In this document: positions 4,419 through 45,086 of the stretch, piece after piece
Position numbering within the stretch: the stretch's first letter is position 1
Layout: the number at the start of each line of letters is the position of its first letter
NCBI GenBank assembly: GCA_038065915.1
Contig: JBBTPZ010000002.1
Location: 18,714 to 69,625, forward strand
Reading direction: 5' to 3'
Source: Patescibacteria group bacterium
GTDB taxonomy: Bacteria > Patescibacteriota > Minisyncoccia > Phycocordibacterales > 21-14-all-36-13
DNA length: 50,912 bases
The notes under the pieces: model-generated
What the model was told of the DNA's origin: nothing
Seen by the model: the letters and a program-made list of their open reading frames with translations, nothing else
Database searches by the model: none
Translations under genes and position numbers: made by a program

Positions 4419-4456
4419 TCTACACCTATCTCTGCTATCGCAAAGATAAGTGTAGA
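4419..4456. repeat. family A hairpin (core CTGCTATCGCA, stem class TCTACA)
   Basis: TCTACACCTATCTCTGCTATCGCAAAGATAAGTGTAGA. Two C-A mismatches become G-U pairs on the minus-strand RNA. T6 follows on the minus strand. Confidence 0.9.
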
Positions 4457-4460
4457 GACT

Positions 4461-5009
4461 TTATAATTCAAATTCATCCTTTAATAAATCTTCATTACTG
4501 ATTTTTTCTGTTTCAAGAAAGATTATGTGTTTTGAAACACCAAAATATTCTCCAATAAATTTGATTTCCTTTTTGCATTCATATGGGGTAATAAAAACCG
4601 ATTTCTGTATTGGAGCACATCCAATTCTTATCAATTTTAGGGTTAATCCATCTCTGGCTGTTTTATGTTTTTCTGGAATATCAAACATTATTATTCTCCA
4701 AATCCCATCCCACCCCTTTTGCTCTTTTATCTTTATTTCATCTATTTTGTATTTCAAAATCTCTTTTCTTCCATTTTCTGTTATTTCAATTACATCAATT
4801 CCTTCTTTTTTATATTTTTTAACATATTTTTTGTTTTCTAATCTATCTATTGCTCGTCTAATTTTCTCCTTTTCTTTCCATGCTTCCGCATCAAACATTT
4901 TATAGACAAGAGGTAATTGTGGAAGTGCCATAGAACCAATTACAAAAGTTGCCCCCACTATTGCTTTTAATATATCTTTAGCTAATTCTCCTCTACTGTG
5001 TTTTTTCAT
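4461..5009 (-). CDS. PaaX-family / Cas2-fold-like small protein, paralog 1 (182 aa)
   Basis: WDGIWRIIMFDIPEKHKTARDGLTLKLIRIGCAPIQKSVFITPYE matches the Cas2-like beta-alpha-beta core seen in PaaX-type proteins. Collinear paralog at 41512..42060. Confidence 0.8.
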   Translation of the reverse strand: MKKHSRGELAKDILKAIVGATFVIGSMALPQLPLVYKMFDAEAWKEKEKIRRAIDRLENKKYVKKYKKEGIDVIEITENGRKEILKYKIDEIKIKEQKGWDGIWRIIMFDIPEKHKTARDGLTLKLIRIGCAPIQKSVFITPYECKKEIKFIGEYFGVSKHIIFLETEKISNEDLLKDEFEL

Positions 5010-5050
5010 ACAAATTATTTTTTGAATGCCACCTTACCCCTCTACATCTA

Positions 5051-5088
5051 TCTCTGCTATAGCAGAGATAGATGTAGAAAGAATTTCT
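5051..5088. repeat. family A hairpin (stem class TCTACA)
   Basis: Perfect palindrome TCTACATCTATCTCTGCTA/TAGCAGAGATAGATGTAGA, ~40 nt upstream of the paralog 1 start. Confidence 0.9.
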
Positions 5089-5174
5089 TCTTTTAAAAAA
5101 CAATTTTCTCACTGCTTATTTATTCATAACCCCATATATCCATATAATTCTTCTAAAAAAATATCATACTTTTA

Positions 5175-5214
5175 TTCTACACTTATCTTTGCTATCGCAA
5201 AGATAAGTGTAGAA
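5175..5214. repeat. family A hairpin (stem class TCTACA)
   Basis: TTCTACACTTATCTTTGCTATCGCAAAGATAAGTGTAGAA, directly after the murG stop. Confidence 0.9.
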
Positions 5215-5219
5215 AATAT

Positions 5220-6347
5220 CTACTTTTCGTGTTCCAAAGCAATTCTTATTAATTCTTTTGCGATTATTTTTGCTGAATCGGTTTTAGCGAATGATTTTGT
5301 TGCATTTATCATATTATTTCTTTTTGTTTCATTACCCATAATTTCTTCCACCTGTGAAATAAGTATGTCATCTGAAAGATTATTTTCTTCAATAACAATA
5401 GCAGAACCGGATGAAGCATAATTAAAGGCGTTTTTTCTTTGGTGATCTCCGTTTGAATTTGTTATTGGAATTATTATACTTGGAACACCCCAAACAGCTA
5501 TTTGAAAAATTGTTGAACCGGCTCTTGAAATAATTAAATCAGCGACCCCTGCAGACATTTTCATCGCAATCGTGTTCAAATAAGAAAAAGGTTTATATCT
5601 GTTTTTATATTTACTATTTTTTAATTCTATATCTGCCAAATTTTTTACATCTGCAAAATTTTTTTCTCCTGTTTGATGAATTATTTGATATTTTTCTACA
5701 AGTTTTGGAAGCGAATCAATAATTACATTATTTATTGTTTGAGAACCCAAGGAACCGCCTATTATAAAAATTACAGGAACATCTTTTTCTAATTTTAAAA
5801 ATTCTTCTGCCCCAGTTTTTGAAGGTTTTAATAATTCTTTCCTTATTGGATTACCCGTTAGGGCCACTTTTTCTTTTGGAAAATAATTTGATGCCTCTGG
5901 ATAAGAAATAGCAATCTTTTTGGCAAATTTTCCAGCCCACATATTGACTTTTCCGGGGACACTATCTGACTCATGAATTATTAGTGGAATTTTAAAAATT
6001 TTTGATGCAAGAATTACAGGAAAACTTCCATAACCTCCTTTTGAAAAAATTACATCTGGGAAAATATTGAATACAACAAAAACACTTTTTACTATTCCCC
6101 ACCCTGTTTTAAATAAATCAAAAAAGTTCATCAAAGAAAAATATCTTCTTAATTTTCCCGCTGATATTTTTTTATATTCTATACCAAGTTCAAAAAGAGC
6201 CCTTTTATCATAAACATCCGGTGCTAAAAAAAACAAATCTGGTTCTAATAGATTTTCATCTTTAACTATTTCCCTTATTTCTTCTGCAACGGCAATAATC
6301 GGATAAAAATGTCCGCCCGTGCCTCCGCCTGTAAATACAATTTTCAT
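5220..6347 (-). CDS. murG: UDP-GlcNAc:undecaprenyl-PP-MurNAc-pentapeptide GlcNAc transferase
   Basis: MKIVFTGGGTGGHFYP N-terminus and typical MurG length (375 aa). Confidence 0.95.
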   Translation of the reverse strand: MKIVFTGGGTGGHFYPIIAVAEEIREIVKDENLLEPDLFFLAPDVYDKRALFELGIEYKKISAGKLRRYFSLMNFFDLFKTGWGIVKSVFVVFNIFPDVIFSKGGYGSFPVILASKIFKIPLIIHESDSVPGKVNMWAGKFAKKIAISYPEASNYFPKEKVALTGNPIRKELLKPSKTGAEEFLKLEKDVPVIFIIGGSLGSQTINNVIIDSLPKLVEKYQIIHQTGEKNFADVKNLADIELKNSKYKNRYKPFSYLNTIAMKMSAGVADLIISRAGSTIFQIAVWGVPSIIIPITNSNGDHQRKNAFNYASSGSAIVIEENNLSDDILISQVEEIMGNETKRNNMINATKSFAKTDSAKIIAKELIRIALEHEK

Positions 6348-6480
6348 CCTGTAGTGAAAAATGGCATCGCTCTAAAAGAGCGCGGTCATTTTTGTTGTTA
6401 ATGTTAATAAATCTTGTCTCATAAATTTTTCATTATTTTAATATCCATTCCCGAATGCCATTTTCTACTACGGGATTCAT
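6345..6480. repeat. family E long inverted repeat (CATCCTGTAGTGAAAAATGGCAT / ATGCCATTTTCTACTACGGGATTCAT) enclosing an inner hairpin
   Basis: Arms at 6345-6367 and 6455-6480 give 22 pairing positions (2 wobbles, 1 mismatch on the + strand). The left arm contains the murG start codon. Confidence 0.85.
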
Positions 6481-6547
6481 CTTATTTATTATATAACAAA
6501 ATTATCTCAAAACAAACGAAGTAAATTTGTGATATTTAATTTAAAAT

Positions 6548-10486: not shown

Positions 10487-10534
10487 TTTACCCCGTGGAA
10501 TAAAATTCTAAAGAATTTTATTCCACGGGGTAAA
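10487..10534. repeat. perfect 22-bp-stem hairpin with a 4-nt loop
   Basis: TTTACCCCGTGGAATAAAATTC-TAAA-GAATTTTATTCCACGGGGTAAA, 6 nt upstream of the carboxypeptidase start. Confidence 0.9.
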
Positions 10535-16819: not shown

Positions 16820-16856
16820 AATCCCTCTCTGCTAGCAGAGAGGGATTTTTTATTTT
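16820..16856 (+). terminator. intrinsic terminator; variant of the family A core (CTCTGCTAGCAGAG)
   Basis: AATCCCTCTCTGCTAGCAGAGAGGGATT plus a T-run. Confidence 0.75.
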
Positions 16857-16915: not shown

Positions 16916-17012
16916 CAGCCAATTTAAATTTAATTTATTGTCAAATTAATAATACTCCATAGGGTCGCCATATCTCTGCGATAGCAGAAATATGGCGACC
17001 AGTTTTTGTTTT
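16916..17012 (+). ncRNA. candidate small RNA 3 (weak)
   Basis: TTGACA at 16880-16885 with an imperfect -10 (CATATA/TATACA). No ORF. Ends in the family A hairpin 16963-17000 plus TTTTTGTTTT. Confidence 0.3.
16963..17000. repeat. family A hairpin (stem class GTCGCC)
   Basis: GGTCGCCATATCTCTGCGATAGCAGAAATATGGCGACC. Confidence 0.9.
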
Positions 17013-23992: not shown

Positions 23993-24083
23993 CAAAAGAT
24001 TAAACCACTTTCTAATTCGCGCGAATTAGAAAGTGGTTTCTGCCTAGTAATTTAGTGATTTTATGTTTTTAAAAATACAAAAT

Positions 24084-27442: not shown

Positions 27443-27482
27443 ATTATGGATTCAAACGCTCATTAAGAGCGTTTGAATTATG
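27443..27482. repeat. family B hairpin
   Basis: ATTATGGATTCAAACGCTC-ATTAA-GAGCGTTTGAATTATG. Confidence 0.85.
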
Positions 27483-27483
27483 A

Positions 27484-27514
27484 ATGAAAATTGTCGCTAA
27501 ACGACAATTTTCAT
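27484..27514. repeat. family C hairpin
   Basis: ATGAAAATTGTCGCTAAACGACAATTTTCAT. The right arm contains the dnaK TGA stop. Confidence 0.85.
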
Positions 27515-29385
27515 TTAGTTTCCGCGTCGTGTATCGTTCCATCATCTTCTTTTTTTCCTTCTTCTGGCTTTGTTTGTGTTTGCGCATTTTTTTGAATTTC
27601 TTCTCCTATTTTAGACATCTCGGAAGATAGTTCTTCTGTTGCCTTTTTAATCTCATCCACTTCATTCCTATCTTTTATTTTTTTAGCATTATCAATTTTT
27701 TCCTGTAAGTTTTTCTTTAAATCATCTGAAATTTTATCAGAATTTTCAGACAATGACCTTTCTGCGGTATAAACAACTTGGTCTAAAAAATTTCTTGCAT
27801 CCATTAATTCTTTTTTCTTTTTGTCTTCTTCTTCGTGTAATTCAGCATCTTTTTGCATCTTTTTTATATCATCTTCAGACAATCCGGATGTTGCTTCTAT
27901 TTTTATTGATTGTTCTTTTCCTGTTGATTTATCTTTTGCTTTCACATTGAGAATTCCGTTTGCATCTATATCAAAAGTAACCTCAATCTGCGGCATTCCT
28001 CTTCTTGAAGGAGGTATTCCATCCAAAACAAATCTGCCCAAACTTTTGTTGTCATTTGCCATAGGTCTTTCTCCTTGGACAACATGAATTTCAACGGATG
28101 TTTGATTGTCAGCAGCGGTAGAAAAAACTTGTGATTTTGATGTAGGTATTGTTGTATTTCTTTCAATTAATTTAGTTGCAACACTACCAAGAGTTTCTAT
28201 ACCAAAAGATAGTGGAATTACATCAAGAAGTAAAACATCTTTTACATCGCCTCTTAAAATTCCAGCTTGAACAGCAGCACCCAAAGCAACCACTTCATCC
28301 GGGTTAATTGACTTGTTTGGTTCTTTCCCGAATAAGTTCTTTACGGCTTTTTGAATCGCAGGCATCCTTGTCTGTCCGCCAACAAGAACTACTTCATCTA
28401 TATCAGAAATTTTAAATGGGGATGCTTCCATGGCTCTTTTTGTTATTTCAATTGATTTATCAATATATTCTTTAACTAAATCTTCAAGCTTTGCTCTTGA
28501 AAATTTCATTAATAAATGTTTGGGACCATCGGCATCTGATGTTATAAAAGGTATATTTATTTCTGTTTCGGTAGAACTGGACAATTCGTGTTTTGCTTTT
28601 TCAGCCGCTTCGTCCAATCTTTGTAGCGCCAAAGAATCTTTTGTAATATCTATGCCACTTTCTTTTTTAAATTCACTAGCAATCCATTTTATTATTTTTT
28701 GGTCTATATCTTTTCCGCCCATATGACTATCGCCGTCTGTTGATTTAACTTCAACCACATCATCTCCCACTTCAAGAACGGAAATGTCAAATGTTCCGCC
28801 ACCAAAATCAAAAACTACTATTTGTTCATTTTTCTTTTTATTAAAACCATAAGCCAGAGCGGCTGCGGTCGGTTCATTTATAATTCTTTTTACATCCAGC
28901 CCGGCTATTTTACCGGCATCTTTTGTCGCCTTTCTTTGTGAATCATTAAAATACGCGGGAACAGTAATAACGGCCTCTGTTATTTTTTCTCCTGTTTTTG
29001 CCTCCGCGTCGGTCTTTATTTTTTGAAGTATTATTGCAGAAATTTCTTCCGGTCTATATTTTTTATCCCCGAGTGTAATTAAAACTCCACTGTCATTTCC
29101 TTTGGTTATTTCGTAGGGGACAATTTCTTTATCTTTTTGGACTTCCTTATCGTCAAAACGATGTCCCATAAATCTTTTTATTCCAAAAACCGTATTTTTA
29201 GGGTTAGTAACCGCCTGTCTTTTGGCAGAAATTCCAACAATTCTTTCGCCAACTTTCGATAAAGCAACAATAGACGGTGTGGTTCTAGCCCCGTCAGAAT
29301 TTTCTAAAATTTTTGGTTCTCCGCCCTCAATAACGGCAAAAGCTGAATTTGTCGTTCCTAAATCAATTCCTAAAATTTTGCTCAT
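27511..29385 (-). CDS. dnaK: chaperone DnaK (Hsp70)
   Basis: [17 protein letters not shown] and [10 protein letters not shown] motifs; 624 aa. Confidence 0.98.
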
Positions 29386-30158: not shown

Positions 30159-30310
30159 GGAGCATAACACAAAAAAAATAATTATGGATTCAAATGCTCC
30201 CATGGAGCATAACACAAAAAAAATAATTATGGATTCAAATGCTCCCATGGAGCATAACACAAAAAAAATAATTATGGATTCAAATGCTCCCATGGAGCAT
30301 TTGAATTATG
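30159..30310. repeat. tandem repeat, 45-bp unit x3 plus a terminal complete family B hairpin
   Basis: Units GGAGCATAACACAAAAAAAATAATTATGGATTCAAATGCTCCCAT at 30159, 30204 and 30249. No spacers. Confidence 0.9.
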
Positions 30311-32715: not shown

Positions 32716-33342
32716 TTAACGATTATAAAATTCTACGACTGACTGCAAATCAAATAATAAATCTGTAGGATTATAAACCGGGGCATTCTTTAAAATTCCT
32801 TCCTTGTTTTTTAAATTGAAAGAAATCCAAGATGGTATATTTGGCATATTCATCACCTCTTTATCAAGATTAACAAATAAACCATTATTTTTCTTTTCAT
32901 TTTTTATTGAAATTTTATCACCAACCCCAACATTATAAGATGGAATTGATAATCTTTTGCCATTTACAGTTATGTGTCCGTGAGAAACTATTTGTCTTGC
33001 CATTCTTCTTGTTTTAGCGAATCCAAGACGATAAACAACATTATCTAATCTGCTTTCTAAAAATTTAAAAAGTTCTTCACTTGGGGTAGATTCTTTTTTT
33101 TCTATAGATTTTTTAACGTAATTTCCAAATTGATTTTCTGAAATACCATATGTAAACCTTGCTTTTTGTTTTTCTATAAGCTGACGACCATAGTTAGTCA
33201 TCGCTCTTGGTCTTTTTTTTGATGAGGATCTTTTTGCTTTGCTTGTTTTTGATTGTGCTAAAGCAAACTTCTCTGTTTGACATTTTTCAAACACACCTGA
33301 ACCCAATCTCTTACATATTTTATATTTTGGACCTGTTATCAT
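32716..33342 (-). CDS. rpsD: 30S ribosomal protein S4
   Basis: GPKYKICKRLG and the S4 domain SHGHITVNGKR. Confidence 0.95.
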   Translation of the reverse strand: MITGPKYKICKRLGSGVFEKCQTEKFALAQSKTSKAKRSSSKKRPRAMTNYGRQLIEKQKARFTYGISENQFGNYVKKSIEKKESTPSEELFKFLESRLDNVVYRLGFAKTRRMARQIVSHGHITVNGKRLSIPSYNVGVGDKISIKNEKKNNGLFVNLDKEVMNMPNIPSWISFNLKNKEGILKNAPVYNPTDLLFDLQSVVEFYNR

Positions 33343-33429
33343 CCTGTAGTGAAAAATGACATTGCTCTAAAAGAGCATTGTTATTTTTGTTATTAATTTT
33401 GATAAATTATTTTTCATCCTGTAGTGAAA
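33340..33429. repeat. two direct copies of the family E left arm CATCCTGTAGTGAAA (33340, 33415)
   Basis: The first copy carries the rpsD start codon. The second opens a 16-codon upstream ORF on the minus strand. Confidence 0.8.
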
Positions 33430-38058: not shown

Positions 38059-38098
38059 AGGTCGCCATATCTCTGCTATCGCAGAGATATGGCGACCT
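38059..38098. repeat. family A hairpin (stem class GTCGCC)
   Basis: AGGTCGCCATATCTCTGCTATCGCAGAGATATGGCGACCT, perfect, just after the alaS stop. Confidence 0.9.
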
Positions 38099-38118: not shown

Positions 38119-39969
38119 CTATTCAAGAACCGCTTTTATTCTACGAACTCCGGCAGAAACTGCCTCTTCTTTTATAATTTTAAAATGTCCAAGTTCAGAA
38201 GTATTTTTAATATGTGGCCCACCACAAATTTCCTTACTAAAATTATCTTCGTCTTTTCCTATAAAATAAACCTTAACTCTATCTCCATATTTATCTTCAA
38301 AAACACCGGTTGCACCTATTTCTTTTGCTTTATCTAATGTCATCTCTTCAAACCAAACCGAAAGATTTTTTTGTATTTGTTCATTAACAATTTTTTCTAT
38401 TTTTTCTTTTTCTTCATCTGTTAATTTTTGTGGATGAGAAAAATCAAATCTTAATCTTTCAGCAGTAATATTACTTCCCTTTTGTTCAATATGATTTCCC
38501 AAAACAATTCTCATTGCTTGCAACATTAAATGAGCAGTTGTGTGCAATTTTTTTGTTTCCTCACTTGCATCCGCAAGCCCTCCTTTAAACATCCCAACGG
38601 ATGCGGTTCTTGATAAATCTTGATGTTTTCTCATTTCGGTATCAAACCCATCACTGGTTCTTTGCCAATCAAGAATAATACAGCGTTTAAAAACTTTTTC
38701 TAGATTTTTTAATTCTTCAAAGATCATCTCTTTTGGAAATCCGTAGGTCTGAAACAGATCAAAACACCATTTTCCACTTATTGGATGTTCTACAATTTCT
38801 TTAAGGGTTCCGGATATTTCAAATTTTTTTCTTAATTCTTTCAAACCATTTTCAAGCGTCTTTCTAAATTTATTTTCTTCAGCTTCCAGTTCTCTTTTTA
38901 TGAAGTCCTTGTTTTTTTCAATTTCTGGATAAACTTTTTTATATATTTTAATTACTGAATCAGAAAGTTTTGATGTAAAATTTTCATTTATATCAATCAT
39001 TTTTGCATATCTAACTGCTCTACGGATAAGCCGTCTCAAAACATATCCATGGCCAGTATTTGAAGGAATAATTCCTTTTTCATCTCCCAAAATCATCACG
39101 GATGCCTTTATGTGGTCTGCAATAATTCTCATTTCTTTTTTAAAATCATCATATTTTTTATTAGACAATTTTTTTATTTCTTCTATTATTGGCAACCACA
39201 ATTCTGTTTTATAATTATCACTAAATCTATTTATAACAGCCAAAGTTCTTTCGAGCCCCATACCTGTATCAACATTTTTTTGTTTGAGTGGCTCAAAGTT
39301 TCCTTCTTTTGTTTTATTGTATTGCATAAAAACATCATTCCAGATTTCTATCCATCTTTTATCATTAAAATCAAACTCACTTGGTGGCTCCACCACCAAG
39401 TCGGACCAATAAAACATTTCTGTATCTGGACCACATGGACCAGTTTCTCCTACCGGACCCCACCAATTATTTTTTTTATCTAACTCCACAATTCTTTTTT
39501 CGGAAATTCCTAAACTAACCCAATTTTTTTTTGATTCTAAATCCTTTGGTGCATTTTTGTCCCCAACAAAAATACTTATTGCTAATTTTTCAATCGGTAT
39601 TTTTAACTCCTTTATCAAAAATTCCAAACTCATTTCAATTGTTTCTTTTTTGAAATATCCTATCCCGACCCCATTTGGGTCTTTGGGGTCACCCAAAGAC
39701 CAATTTCCAAGCATTTCAAAAAAAGTGTGGTGTGTTTCATTTCCAACTTCTTCTATATCGCCTGTTCTTATACATTTTTGAACACTTGTTAATTTATTAC
39801 CCAGAGGATGTCTTTCTCCCATTAAAAATGGGACGAGCGGATGCATTCCGGCAGTTGTAAACAAAACAGATGGATCATTTTCAGGAATTAAAGATGCAGA
39901 AGAAATAATCGCATGACCGCGTTTTTTAAAAAAGTTTAAATATTTATCTCGTAATTCATCAGCTTTCAT
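38119..39969 (-). CDS. alaS: alanyl-tRNA synthetase lacking the C-Ala domain (616 aa)
   Basis: MKADELRDKYLNFFKKRGH start, editing-domain HTAHLML, and an end at ..AGVRRIKAVLE. The 27-codon ORF-track extension reads through repeats. Confidence 0.95.
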   Translation of the reverse strand: MKADELRDKYLNFFKKRGHAIISSASLIPENDPSVLFTTAGMHPLVPFLMGERHPLGNKLTSVQKCIRTGDIEEVGNETHHTFFEMLGNWSLGDPKDPNGVGIGYFKKETIEMSLEFLIKELKIPIEKLAISIFVGDKNAPKDLESKKNWVSLGISEKRIVELDKKNNWWGPVGETGPCGPDTEMFYWSDLVVEPPSEFDFNDKRWIEIWNDVFMQYNKTKEGNFEPLKQKNVDTGMGLERTLAVINRFSDNYKTELWLPIIEEIKKLSNKKYDDFKKEMRIIADHIKASVMILGDEKGIIPSNTGHGYVLRRLIRRAVRYAKMIDINENFTSKLSDSVIKIYKKVYPEIEKNKDFIKRELEAEENKFRKTLENGLKELRKKFEISGTLKEIVEHPISGKWCFDLFQTYGFPKEMIFEELKNLEKVFKRCIILDWQRTSDGFDTEMRKHQDLSRTASVGMFKGGLADASEETKKLHTTAHLMLQAMRIVLGNHIEQKGSNITAERLRFDFSHPQKLTDEEKEKIEKIVNEQIQKNLSVWFEEMTLDKAKEIGATGVFEDKYGDRVKVYFIGKDEDNFSKEICGGPHIKNTSELGHFKIIKEEAVSAGVRRIKAVLE

Positions 39970-40145
39970 CCTGTAGTGAAATTTCAAATTGTTTTCTTGT
40001 CCCGTAGCGAGCTTCGCTCTGCTACTGGGGTTATTAATTTTTAAAAACAATTCAAAACTCTGTCGTTAAATTAACTATATATTATTCTAGAACCTAATCC
40101 CGAGAAAAACAAATTAATGATTTGAAATTCTACTACGGGATTCAT
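39967..40145. repeat. family E long inverted repeat enclosing a family H element
   Basis: Arms CATCCTGTAGTGAAATTTCAAA (39967-39988) and TTTGAAATTCTACTACGGGATTCAT (40121-40145). The left arm carries the alaS start codon. Confidence 0.85.
39996..40030. repeat. family H element CTTGTCCCGTAGCGAGCTTCGCTCTGCTACTGGGG
   Basis: Near-identical to 24148-24181. Confidence 0.85.
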
Positions 40146-41421: not shown

Positions 41422-41463
41422 AATTTTATTTTAACATATTTTCCATAAACTTTTGTAAAAACA

Positions 41464-41503
41464 AGGTCGCTCTATTTTTGCGATAGCAGAAATAGAGCGA
41501 CCT
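41464..41503. repeat. family A hairpin (stem GGTCGCTCTAT, core inverted: GCGATAGC)
   Basis: AGGTCGCTCTATTTTTGCGATAGCAGAAATAGAGCGACCT, just after the paralog 2 stop. Confidence 0.9.
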
Positions 41504-41511
41504 TAAATAAT

Positions 41512-42060
41512 TTACAACTCAAACTCATCTTTTAAAGAATCTTCATTACTAATTTTATTTGTTTCAAGGAAAATTATATGTTTTGCAATATCGAAGTATT
41601 CTCCAATAAATTTAATCTCCTTTTCGCATTCGTATGGACTAACAAAAACCGATTTTTGTATTGGAGCACAACCCATTTTTATCAATTTTAAGGTTAATCC
41701 ATCACGAGCCGTTTTCTTTTTTTCAGGAATATCAAACATTATTATTCTCCAGATGCCATCCCATCTTTTTTGTTCTTTTATTTTTATTTCGTCTAATTTA
41801 TATTTTAAAACTTCTTTTCTTCCATTTTCAGTTATTTCAACGACATCAATCCCTCCTTTTTTATATTTCTTTACATATTTTTTATTTTGTAATCTATCCA
41901 TTGCTTTTCTTACTCTTTCCTTTTCTCTTTTGTCTTCCGCATCAAACATTTTATAAATCATGGGTAGTTGTGGTAATGCAAGAGAAGAAACAAGAAATGC
42001 TGTTCCAACAAGTCCTTTTAAAATATTTTTCATTATTTCTCCATTTCTATATTTCTTCAT
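41512..42060 (-). CDS. PaaX-family / Cas2-fold-like small protein, paralog 2 (182 aa)
   Basis: Gap-free alignment with 4461..5009. By eye about 40 differences in 182 positions. Confidence 0.8.
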   Translation of the reverse strand: MKKYRNGEIMKNILKGLVGTAFLVSSLALPQLPMIYKMFDAEDKREKERVRKAMDRLQNKKYVKKYKKGGIDVVEITENGRKEVLKYKLDEIKIKEQKRWDGIWRIIMFDIPEKKKTARDGLTLKLIKMGCAPIQKSVFVSPYECEKEIKFIGEYFDIAKHIIFLETNKISNEDSLKDEFEL

Positions 42061-42098: not shown

Positions 42099-42138
42099 GA
42101 GCCCACCCTACTCTGCTATCGTAGAATAGGGTGGGCTC
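42099..42138. repeat. family A hairpin (stem class GAGCCCACCC)
   Basis: GAGCCCACCCTACTCTGCTATCGTAGAATAGGGTGGGCTC. Confidence 0.85.
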
Positions 42139-42215: not shown

Positions 42216-42260
42216 ATCACCATTTATTATTTTTCGTGTTATTATTTTCCATTTATTCTA

Positions 42261-42300
42261 TAGTCGCCACATCTCTGCTATCGCAGAGATGTGGCGACTA
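42261..42300. repeat. family A hairpin (stem class GTCGCC)
   Basis: TAGTCGCCACATCTCTGCTATCGCAGAGATGTGGCGACTA, perfect. Confidence 0.9.
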
Positions 42301-42312
42301 TTATAAAATATA

Positions 42313-45042: not shown

Positions 45043-45086
45043 AAAAGTCGCCGTATCTCTGCTATCGCAAAGATACGGCGACTTTT
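45043..45086. repeat. family A hairpin (stem class GTCGCC)
   Basis: AAAAGTCGCCGTATCTCTGCTATCGCAAAGATACGGCGACTTTT. Confidence 0.9.

Follow-up and report, generated by a model that had tools for sequence, protein, structure and literature searches.

The locus described here raises the question of why a single small gene should lie between several copies of one kind of palindrome, and what its product does with them. It occupies positions 4419–5214 of a stretch of 50,912 nucleotides (here called the window; G+C content 30%) from contig JBBTPZ010000002.1 of assembly GCA_038065915.1, a bacterium of the Patescibacteria group. The gene (copy 1, 4461..5009 on the minus strand, with an ATG start in the list of open reading frames (ORFs)) encodes a protein of 182 residues, predicted to consist of a winged helix followed by a Cas2-like domain of the PaaX_M type. 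An earlier note on this DNA had likened the arrangement to a REPtron, in which the gene of a REP-associated tyrosine transposase (RAYT) sits among its repetitive extragenic palindromes (REPs). The association of gene and hairpins proves to be real and specific, and extends over a whole protein family. We class the unit as a regulator of PaaX/MarR-like kind, whose site architecture is unusual and resembles that of repeats.

Three palindromes bracket copy 1. Hairpin C (4419..4456, minus strand) starts 4 nt past the stop codon, and has 15 Watson-Crick pairs, two mismatches (G.T on the sense strand of the gene) and a loop of 4. Read on the minus strand it forms 17 pairs, if G-T is allowed, followed by TTTTTTGG. 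It has the G+C-rich stem and the 3' T-run of an intrinsic terminator, and together with TTTTTT it scores as one. The remaining palindromes of the window carry no strand assignment. Hairpin B (5041..5078, repeat I2) is a perfect palindrome of 38 bp, with arms of 19 bp, which ends 31 nt before the ATG and is the proposed operator of copy 1; its position is also filled in a second copy of the gene in the window and in the orthologs L006, L209 and L210 (L numbers denote related loci). Hairpin A (5175..5214, repeat I7), with 18 pairs and a loop of 4, begins 6 nt past the murG stop. The earlier note had described three hairpins of 38–40 nt around the gene, which is correct, except that it placed the middle one at 5051–5088, 10 nt off, starting with the core.

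The core, TCTYTGCTATMGCARAGA, is found at seven sites in the window with at most one mismatch, against 0.00 expected from 100 shuffles. With two degenerate copies, whose centres are at 41483 and 42118, there are nine core hairpins in all, in line with the minimum of nine counted previously. Six of these flank copies 1 and 2, and three are lone, at gene 3' ends or between convergent genes. The outer stem TCTACAYYTA is confined, within the window, to the three hairpins of copy 1, as had also been noted. Copy 2 (41512..42060, minus strand) is a paralog, 78% identical to copy 1, at a site between UDG and peptidase M16 genes, where it is syntenic with the family genes of L001 and L006; the neighbours of copy 1 are murG and gltX. 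The two copies are laid out alike: hairpin A is separated by about 100 nt from hairpin B, which is followed after about 35 nt by the gene and after another 4–8 nt by hairpin C. The corresponding hairpins of copy 2 are A' upstream (42260..42301, outer stem AGTCGCCAC, repeat I3), B' upstream (42099..42138, outer stem GAGCCCACCC, with a degenerate core) and C' at the 3' side (41463..41504, outer stem GGTCGCTCT). In the matching 74,783-bp contig of the metagenome-assembled genome the two family genes have the locus tags AAB334_00175 and AAB334_00375.

The family is large. It comprises 1,087 clusters at 50% identity (E ≤ 1e-30), and at least 586 loci among the GTDB species representatives, nearly all of them labelled as Patescibacteria groups; the genes are often present in several copies per genome. 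Eight loci (L020, L022, L026, L033, L039, L041, L061 and L084) come from bins labelled Syntrophaceae, Thermodesulfobacteriota, Deltaproteobacteria or Gammaproteobacteria. A phage-borne family was considered and rejected, the scan of viral contigs having returned one weak relative and essentially nothing else.

Hairpins were scanned for at 80 family loci outside the window in which the gene was located. Most of these genes have a near-perfect palindrome of 30–50 bp at 8–130 nt before the ATG, at 0–90 nt past the stop, or at both. A dyad score of 13/16 or more is reached by 45 of 83 flanks on the upstream side and by 44 of 85 on the downstream side, compared with 11 of 324 random windows; most of the weaker flanks have an imperfect dyad whose centre is of the same type. 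Of 100 flanking palindromes, 77 have the centre C[TG]AT[AC]G; of the 190 hairpins found elsewhere in 1.25 Mb, 21 have it. Brackets of hairpins that share a 10-mer surround 20 of the 80 family genes and 3 of 1005 other ORFs. Upstream and downstream palindromes of a gene match each other: their arms have an identity of 0.84 when both copies belong to one gene and of 0.34 when they belong to different genes, and 27 of 30 same-gene pairs exceed the 95th percentile of unrelated pairs. Paralogs within one genome have differing palindromes (L008/L012/L071, L023/L030 and an adjacent pair in L072). Taken across the family, the palindrome sequence changes together with the protein. Its similarity follows the winged helix and the Cas2-like domain to about the same degree, with partial correlations of 0.17 and 0.14 that do not discriminate between them. 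The 316 neighbouring ORFs of family genes fall into 235 clusters, of which the largest has five members, and the gene is a stand-alone unit, found in unrelated contexts without a conserved neighbour.

The adjacent pair (L072:3115-7261) deserves separate mention. Its two paralogs are 1.6 kb apart and divergently specified, and copies of both palindrome classes are found in every intergenic space, where they also bracket a uvrC-like gene and a secreted-looking protein of 279 residues.

These numbers bear on the plainest alternative, namely that gene and palindromes have no functional link, the latter being ordinary bidirectional terminators whose likeness to each other is due only to their having been copied with the gene, or to homogenisation by gene conversion. 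It has some appeal, in that several unrelated families of repeated hairpins stand at gene ends in these genomes, and that paralogous loci do recombine. But the pairing recurs in about 80 independent lineages, in which the arms differ and the centre stays the same; other genes show it about 80 times less often; and the upstream copies lie beside the start codon, where a terminator of the same gene would make no sense. We consider this alternative very unlikely. The searchable literature yielded no earlier description of this PaaX/Cas2-like family with palindromes, and the pairing in Patescibacteria appears to be undescribed so far, as the earlier note had supposed.

What kind of protein is involved? 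The sole Pfam match above threshold for the copy 1 protein is PF20803, PaaX_M ("PaaX protein central Cas2-like domain"), at residues 98–172 (E 2.1e-20, 73.1 bits against a cut-off of 24). Models of Cas2 itself align with residues 104–141 and stay below their thresholds (PF09827 at 15.5 bits against 23.8, TIGR01573 at 17.1 against 24.5). Searches of PHROGs and PADLOC gave weak winged-helix or Cas2 matches only, with E 6e-4 for the best Cas2 match in PADLOC. The AlphaFold2 model (pLDDT 81) has a winged helix at residues 6–91 (helices 6–23, 32–38 and 44–59, wing 63–76) and a β-α-β-β-α-β domain at residues 104–167. Foldseek places E. coli PaaX (PDB 8a39) at the top, over 188 columns, followed by the PaaX-like structures 3kfw and 3l09, while MarR-type and Cas2 structures each match one half of the protein. 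The earlier description of the product as Cas2/PaaX-like is borne out by all of this. A hydrophobic stretch at the N-terminus was considered as a membrane helix and rejected: it aligns with MarR helices and is modelled inside the winged-helix domain.

Alignment of the family profile agrees with this division, matching residues 15–87 to MarR/SlyA and residues 106–139 to the Cas2 protein SSO8090. D110, invariant in 29 family sequences, aligns with the aspartate of the YDV motif of SSO8090, directly after the first β-strand. In the alignment to E. coli PaaX, the family has FDIPE...QKSVF where PaaX has SEGLD...APSLM. The family has thus retained the Cas2 signature, including the invariant D110, and canonical PaaX has lost both. 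The protein is not a true PaaX, because it lacks the C-terminal domain (no Pfam match to PaaX_C, the chain ending at residue 182), because it scores 28.8 bits against the cut-off of 264.55 of the PaaX equivalog TIGR02277, and because no paa genes lie near the family genes, in the window or in the neighbourhoods of the relatives.

The palindrome is a two-part element, with a conserved dyad and a structural stem that has a G+C-rich base, after which there is often a T-run. The conserved centre of the family is RC-KATM-GY. Outward from the dyad, the family has T-M-G-Y at positions 1–4 (50 of 58 have the T and 55 of 58 the G), and positions 5–12 are A/T-rich and lineage-specific. For the lineage of the window the conserved part is the inner core of about 24 bp, (T)ATCTCTGC-KATM-GCAGAGAT(A), which is common to both window paralogs and is kept where MurG is merely 73–90% identical. 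The outer stem behaves differently. At the same murG site it is replaced wholly and yet remains complementary, as TCTACA, GCCACGAT/GTGACACTAT or CCTCGCTCT. In a set of 34 hairpins with the common core, both sides have changed at 14 of 18 stem pairs, and the stem covariation score is 0.76 against 0.17 after shuffling, for hairpins that were pre-selected for outer pairing. The further suggestion that each paralog has one class of outer stem does not hold in the relatives, since at the murG site of L102 there is a TCTACA hairpin by itself, and in L006 another lies upstream of the other paralog's site.

Several features indicate at which level the element is read. The loop is 0 in 80 of 102 flanking palindromes, and 65 of 77 centres are self-complementary, where base frequencies would give about 40. 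Asymmetric centres have no strand preference across the family (CTATCG 7, CGATAG 5), and their orientations are mixed in the window. Mismatches on the sense strand of downstream hairpins are G.T in 20 cases and A.C in 6; in upstream hairpins the corresponding numbers are 12 and 9, without bias. Recognition of double-stranded DNA by a symmetric dimer is suggested by the loop-free dyads, the self-complementary centres, the lack of centre orientation, the family members with imperfect dyads and the nearest structures, which are dimeric repressors. The figure of 78% loop-free perfect dyads, together with the many imperfect ones, fits a dimer bound to double-stranded DNA better than an enzyme that processes hairpins. 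Hairpin formation also matters, because the outer stems co-vary, because hairpin C is followed by TTTTTT and because downstream hairpins are biased to G.T. We take the element to act at both levels, with the dyad as a putative protein site and the whole palindrome as a terminator or insulator.

On the basis of these observations, we think there is about an even chance that the gene encodes a dimeric DNA-binding protein whose cognate dyad sites regulate and insulate its own gene and double as terminators. The product would be a small homodimer, in which the N-terminal winged helix of MarR/PaaX type reads the DNA and the C-terminal Cas2-like domain, equivalent to the central domain of PaaX, joins the two subunits. 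The dimer would recognise a dyad-symmetric site of about 24 bp, with lineage specificity at positions 5–12 from the centre. This site would form the tip of a longer hairpin-forming palindrome, whose outer G+C-rich stem may vary freely as long as it stays complementary. Autoregulation would come from the palindrome or palindromes on the upstream side, which would cover the promoter or leader, and the downstream copy would be the intrinsic terminator of the gene; between them the copies would insulate the gene and make it self-contained. Lone copies at the ends of other genes may be extra binding or terminator sites, or the remains of a lost gene copy.

The position of the upstream palindrome is compatible with this. 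Its dyad lies at a median of 47 nt from the ATG, and the sequence TATAAT follows directly past the palindrome in L035, L021, L006/L207 and L210. An overlap of dyad and promoter is plausible, if statistically unsupported.

Known proteins offer partial precedents. PaaX of E. coli, the phenylacetyl-CoA-responsive repressor of the paa operon, also has a winged helix followed by a Cas2-like domain, and binds palindromic operators as a dimer. It differs in its length of 316 residues, against 182 for the family protein, which is without its C-terminal domain; and the family's sites are palindromes of 30–50 bp on both sides of its own gene. Autoregulated repressors of the MarR type are comparable in that the N-terminal domain aligns with MarR/SlyA and that a dyad lies just upstream of the gene's own start codon. 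Unlike them, the family would dimerise through the Cas2-like domain rather than the MarR helical bundle, and its sites are much longer, are also found downstream of the gene, and lie inside hairpins with co-varying stems.

Several points weigh against the dimeric-repressor reading. Hexamers resembling a -10 box adjoin the upstream palindrome in 19 cases, against 10–15 in controls, an enrichment that is not significant. The compensatory change of the outer stem amounts to selection for pairing, which a pure double-stranded operator does not need. All three lone copies in the window are at 3' ends or between convergent genes, where they have no obvious job as operators. Perfect palindromy can also come from template-switch "quasipalindrome correction", which weakens the argument from symmetry. 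The Cas2-type motifs that are kept, among them the aspartate aligned with the catalytic aspartate of Cas2, hint at a role beyond dimerisation. Finally, dimerisation, the binding of double-stranded DNA and autoregulation are inferences.

Another reading is a partner that acts on RNA. The protein might bind or cut the transcribed hairpins, that is terminators and 5' leaders, and so tune termination, read-through or mRNA stability, either by binding RNA or as an RNase of Cas2/VapD type, an activity that some members of those two groups have. The excess of G.U over A.C on the sense strand of downstream hairpins (20 against 6) is what would be expected, as are the co-varying outer stems, the T-runs at hairpin C and several lone copies, and the terminator-like shape given by the G+C-rich stem base. 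An RNA loop, however, does not require a self-complementary centre, which is well above expectation here, and the asymmetric centres have no preferred orientation with respect to transcription. The upstream palindromes lack the G.U bias (12 against 9), and the closest structures are DNA-binding repressors. An RNA-level role is, in our judgement, distinctly unlikely.

The lone palindromes and the history of the murG site bring in the remaining alternative. Dispersed extragenic copies amount to three in the 51-kb window, 16 in about 1.25 Mb of the relatives' loci, where they lie in convergent, divergent and tandem intergenic spaces, and many in a metagenome scan: the matches to the core include about 45 long palindromes, of which only about eight adjoin a family gene. 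In the window, one lone hairpin is at 16963..17000, between convergent ORF 3' ends; the second, at 38059..38098 (repeat I6), is 21 nt past the stop of the gene 38119..40050(-), and is missing at the orthologous spot in L001 and L006; the third, at 45043..45086, is between convergent genes and has runs of A4/T4 on its flanks. T-runs are present at all three.

The site downstream of murG was compared in the window and in L209, L210, L207, L102 and L208. The window has hairpin, hairpin, gene and hairpin, while L209 (MurG 81% identical to the window) and L210 (73%) both have hairpin, gene and hairpin. L207 (MurG 90%) has a TCTACA hairpin, a remnant of 47 residues and a hairpin; in this remnant (L207:4376-4519) the first 18 and last 29 codons are joined across a KFIG/AAATTTATTGG microhomology, and the flanking hairpins are still there. 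L102, about 80% identical at the nucleotide level, has one TCTACA hairpin with homologous flanks on either side, and L208 (MurG 83%) has nothing at the site. Since the most distant relative, L210, is occupied, the simplest history is repeated loss, by deletion between the 38-bp direct repeats and by microhomology deletion, with no insertion needed. Recombination between the flanking palindromes would leave a lone hairpin exactly as in L102. The series shows one route to lone copies, and that this gene copy is dispensable; it is not proof of active mobility. In the genome of L006/L207 the upstream hairpin and leader are nearly identical at the two paralogous loci, and therefore these loci exchange sequence. 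Two further sets of occupied and empty sites (L008 against L066, and L048/L073 against L086), which came out of a search across all the collected loci, were examined and set aside: the gene is missing in the empty member, but the sites are too diverged or contain other genes, and are not clean footprints.

Could the protein itself have produced this pattern? In a unit of the REP/RAYT kind, the Cas2-like domain would be a nuclease, active and metal-dependent, which the winged helix directs to extruded hairpins or cruciforms; by nicking these it would spread the hairpins and move or duplicate the cassette. The likeness to the REPtrons of Proteobacteria, with their transposase TnpA_REP, is considerable: a single gene is flanked by cognate extragenic palindromes, with more copies at gene ends; paralogs and lineages have differing classes of repeat, each paralog with its own; and the repeats resemble terminators. 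D110, aligned with the YDV aspartate of SSO8090, and the FDIPE and QKSVF motifs, lost in E. coli PaaX, could serve a nuclease. Presence and absence at the murG site have hairpin borders (the lone hairpin of L102, the remnant of L207), hairpin and leader are exchanged between paralogous loci of one genome (L006, L207), and hairpin families turn over fast at orthologous intergenic spots. Set against this, the scans with Pfam and NCBIfam found no HUH/Y1 (Y1_Tnp) or other recombinase domain, and the conserved family columns contain no His-x-His motif; the protein is not an IS200-like transposase. Copies away from the gene are few in most lineages and apparently far fewer than those of REPs, the murG series is explained by loss without insertion, and the family is essentially absent from viral contigs. 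The palindromes are mostly loop-free perfect dyads, without the GTAG head of REPs, and the imperfect dyads of many members would not fold. We regard the REP/RAYT-like reading as unlikely. Cognate palindromes do flank the gene, as in a REPtron; there is no sign of transposase-like activity.

A comparison with Cas2 and VapD leads to a related possibility. The shared features are the ferredoxin-like β-α-β-β-α-β domain, the aspartate that ends the first strand and the conserved Q-x-S-V-F strand; the differences are that the domain is fused to a winged helix, and that all Cas2 scores are below threshold. No cas1 or CRISPR array was found by the family genes (among the 316 neighbouring ORFs), and the hairpins are singly dispersed rather than arrayed. 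It is something of a long shot that this family is a dedicated partner of dispersed Patescibacteria palindromes that acts as a site-specific nuclease or recombination-directing factor. If so, the palindrome-gene-palindrome units would be semi-mobile, a counterpart of REP/RAYT without HUH, and a free-living case of palindromic-repeat recognition of the Cas2 type outside CRISPR. By analogy only, the pdif (XerC/D) modules of Acinetobacter plasmids and integron cassettes also have single genes bracketed by short palindromic sites, in units that are present or absent between relatives. They differ in that the likely site-binding protein is here the product of the bracketed gene.

Overall the evidence favours a DNA-binding dimer over a RAYT-like nuclease, an RNA-level role or coincidence. 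Patescibacteria have very small genomes and few recognisable regulators, and this family is large, each copy having its own DNA "address". If the protein binds the palindromes, they would constitute a ready-made set of orthogonal protein-DNA pairs, and be among the first predictable regulatory circuits in uncultivated Patescibacteria. The Cas2 motifs, kept here and lost in canonical PaaX, mean that the family could help to show how the Cas2 fold joined DNA-binding regulators, and it may throw light on the part that Cas2-like proteins play outside CRISPR. How lone intergenic palindromes can arise is seen at the murG site, in its succession of whole gene, remnant and lone hairpin.

It is worth adding some observations on other repeats. 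A perfect palindrome of 28 nt, AATCCCTCTCTGCTAGCAGAGAGGGATT, lies at 16820–16847 of the window, about 120 nt from the lone hairpin at 16963–17000; its core, CTCTGC-TA-GCAGAG, is the family core minus the central AT. Two more long perfect palindromes, of unrelated sequence, are at 10487–10534 (23-bp arms around AA) and 24002–24039 (38 nt, with a CGCG centre). Rfam at gathering thresholds gave no match in the window, which also has no tRNAs.

A second family of repeated hairpins, ATGAAAA(A)T...loop...ATTTTTCAT, is found in the window at 69–99 and 27483–27515, and also at L006:856-890, L102:10411-10440, L207:4125-4154, L117:6930-6959 and L187:6333-6362. These hairpins often start at or over a stop codon, for example directly 3' of murG in L102 and L207. 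A third family, (A/C)TT(A/G)AAA..CTC-NNN-GAG..TTT..AA(T/G), is at 503–531, 27450–27478 and 30278–30306 of the window; it has eight copies in L006 and is at many gene ends in related genomes, and L207:4160-4241 carries a tandem duplication of it with a period of 53 nt.

The species of the window is also represented by L205 (ENA ERZ1286166 contig_4896, 685,866 bp), whose flanks are 99.4% identical and whose gene calls are fragmented, probably through long-read indel errors. Lastly, a repeated element of about 80–150 nt occurs in the window at 6343–6494, 5' of murG, and at 33339–33427, 5' of the gene 32716..33342(-). It has no Rfam match, is 83–90% conserved at other positions in L001, L006 and L187, and may be a leader or a small RNA.

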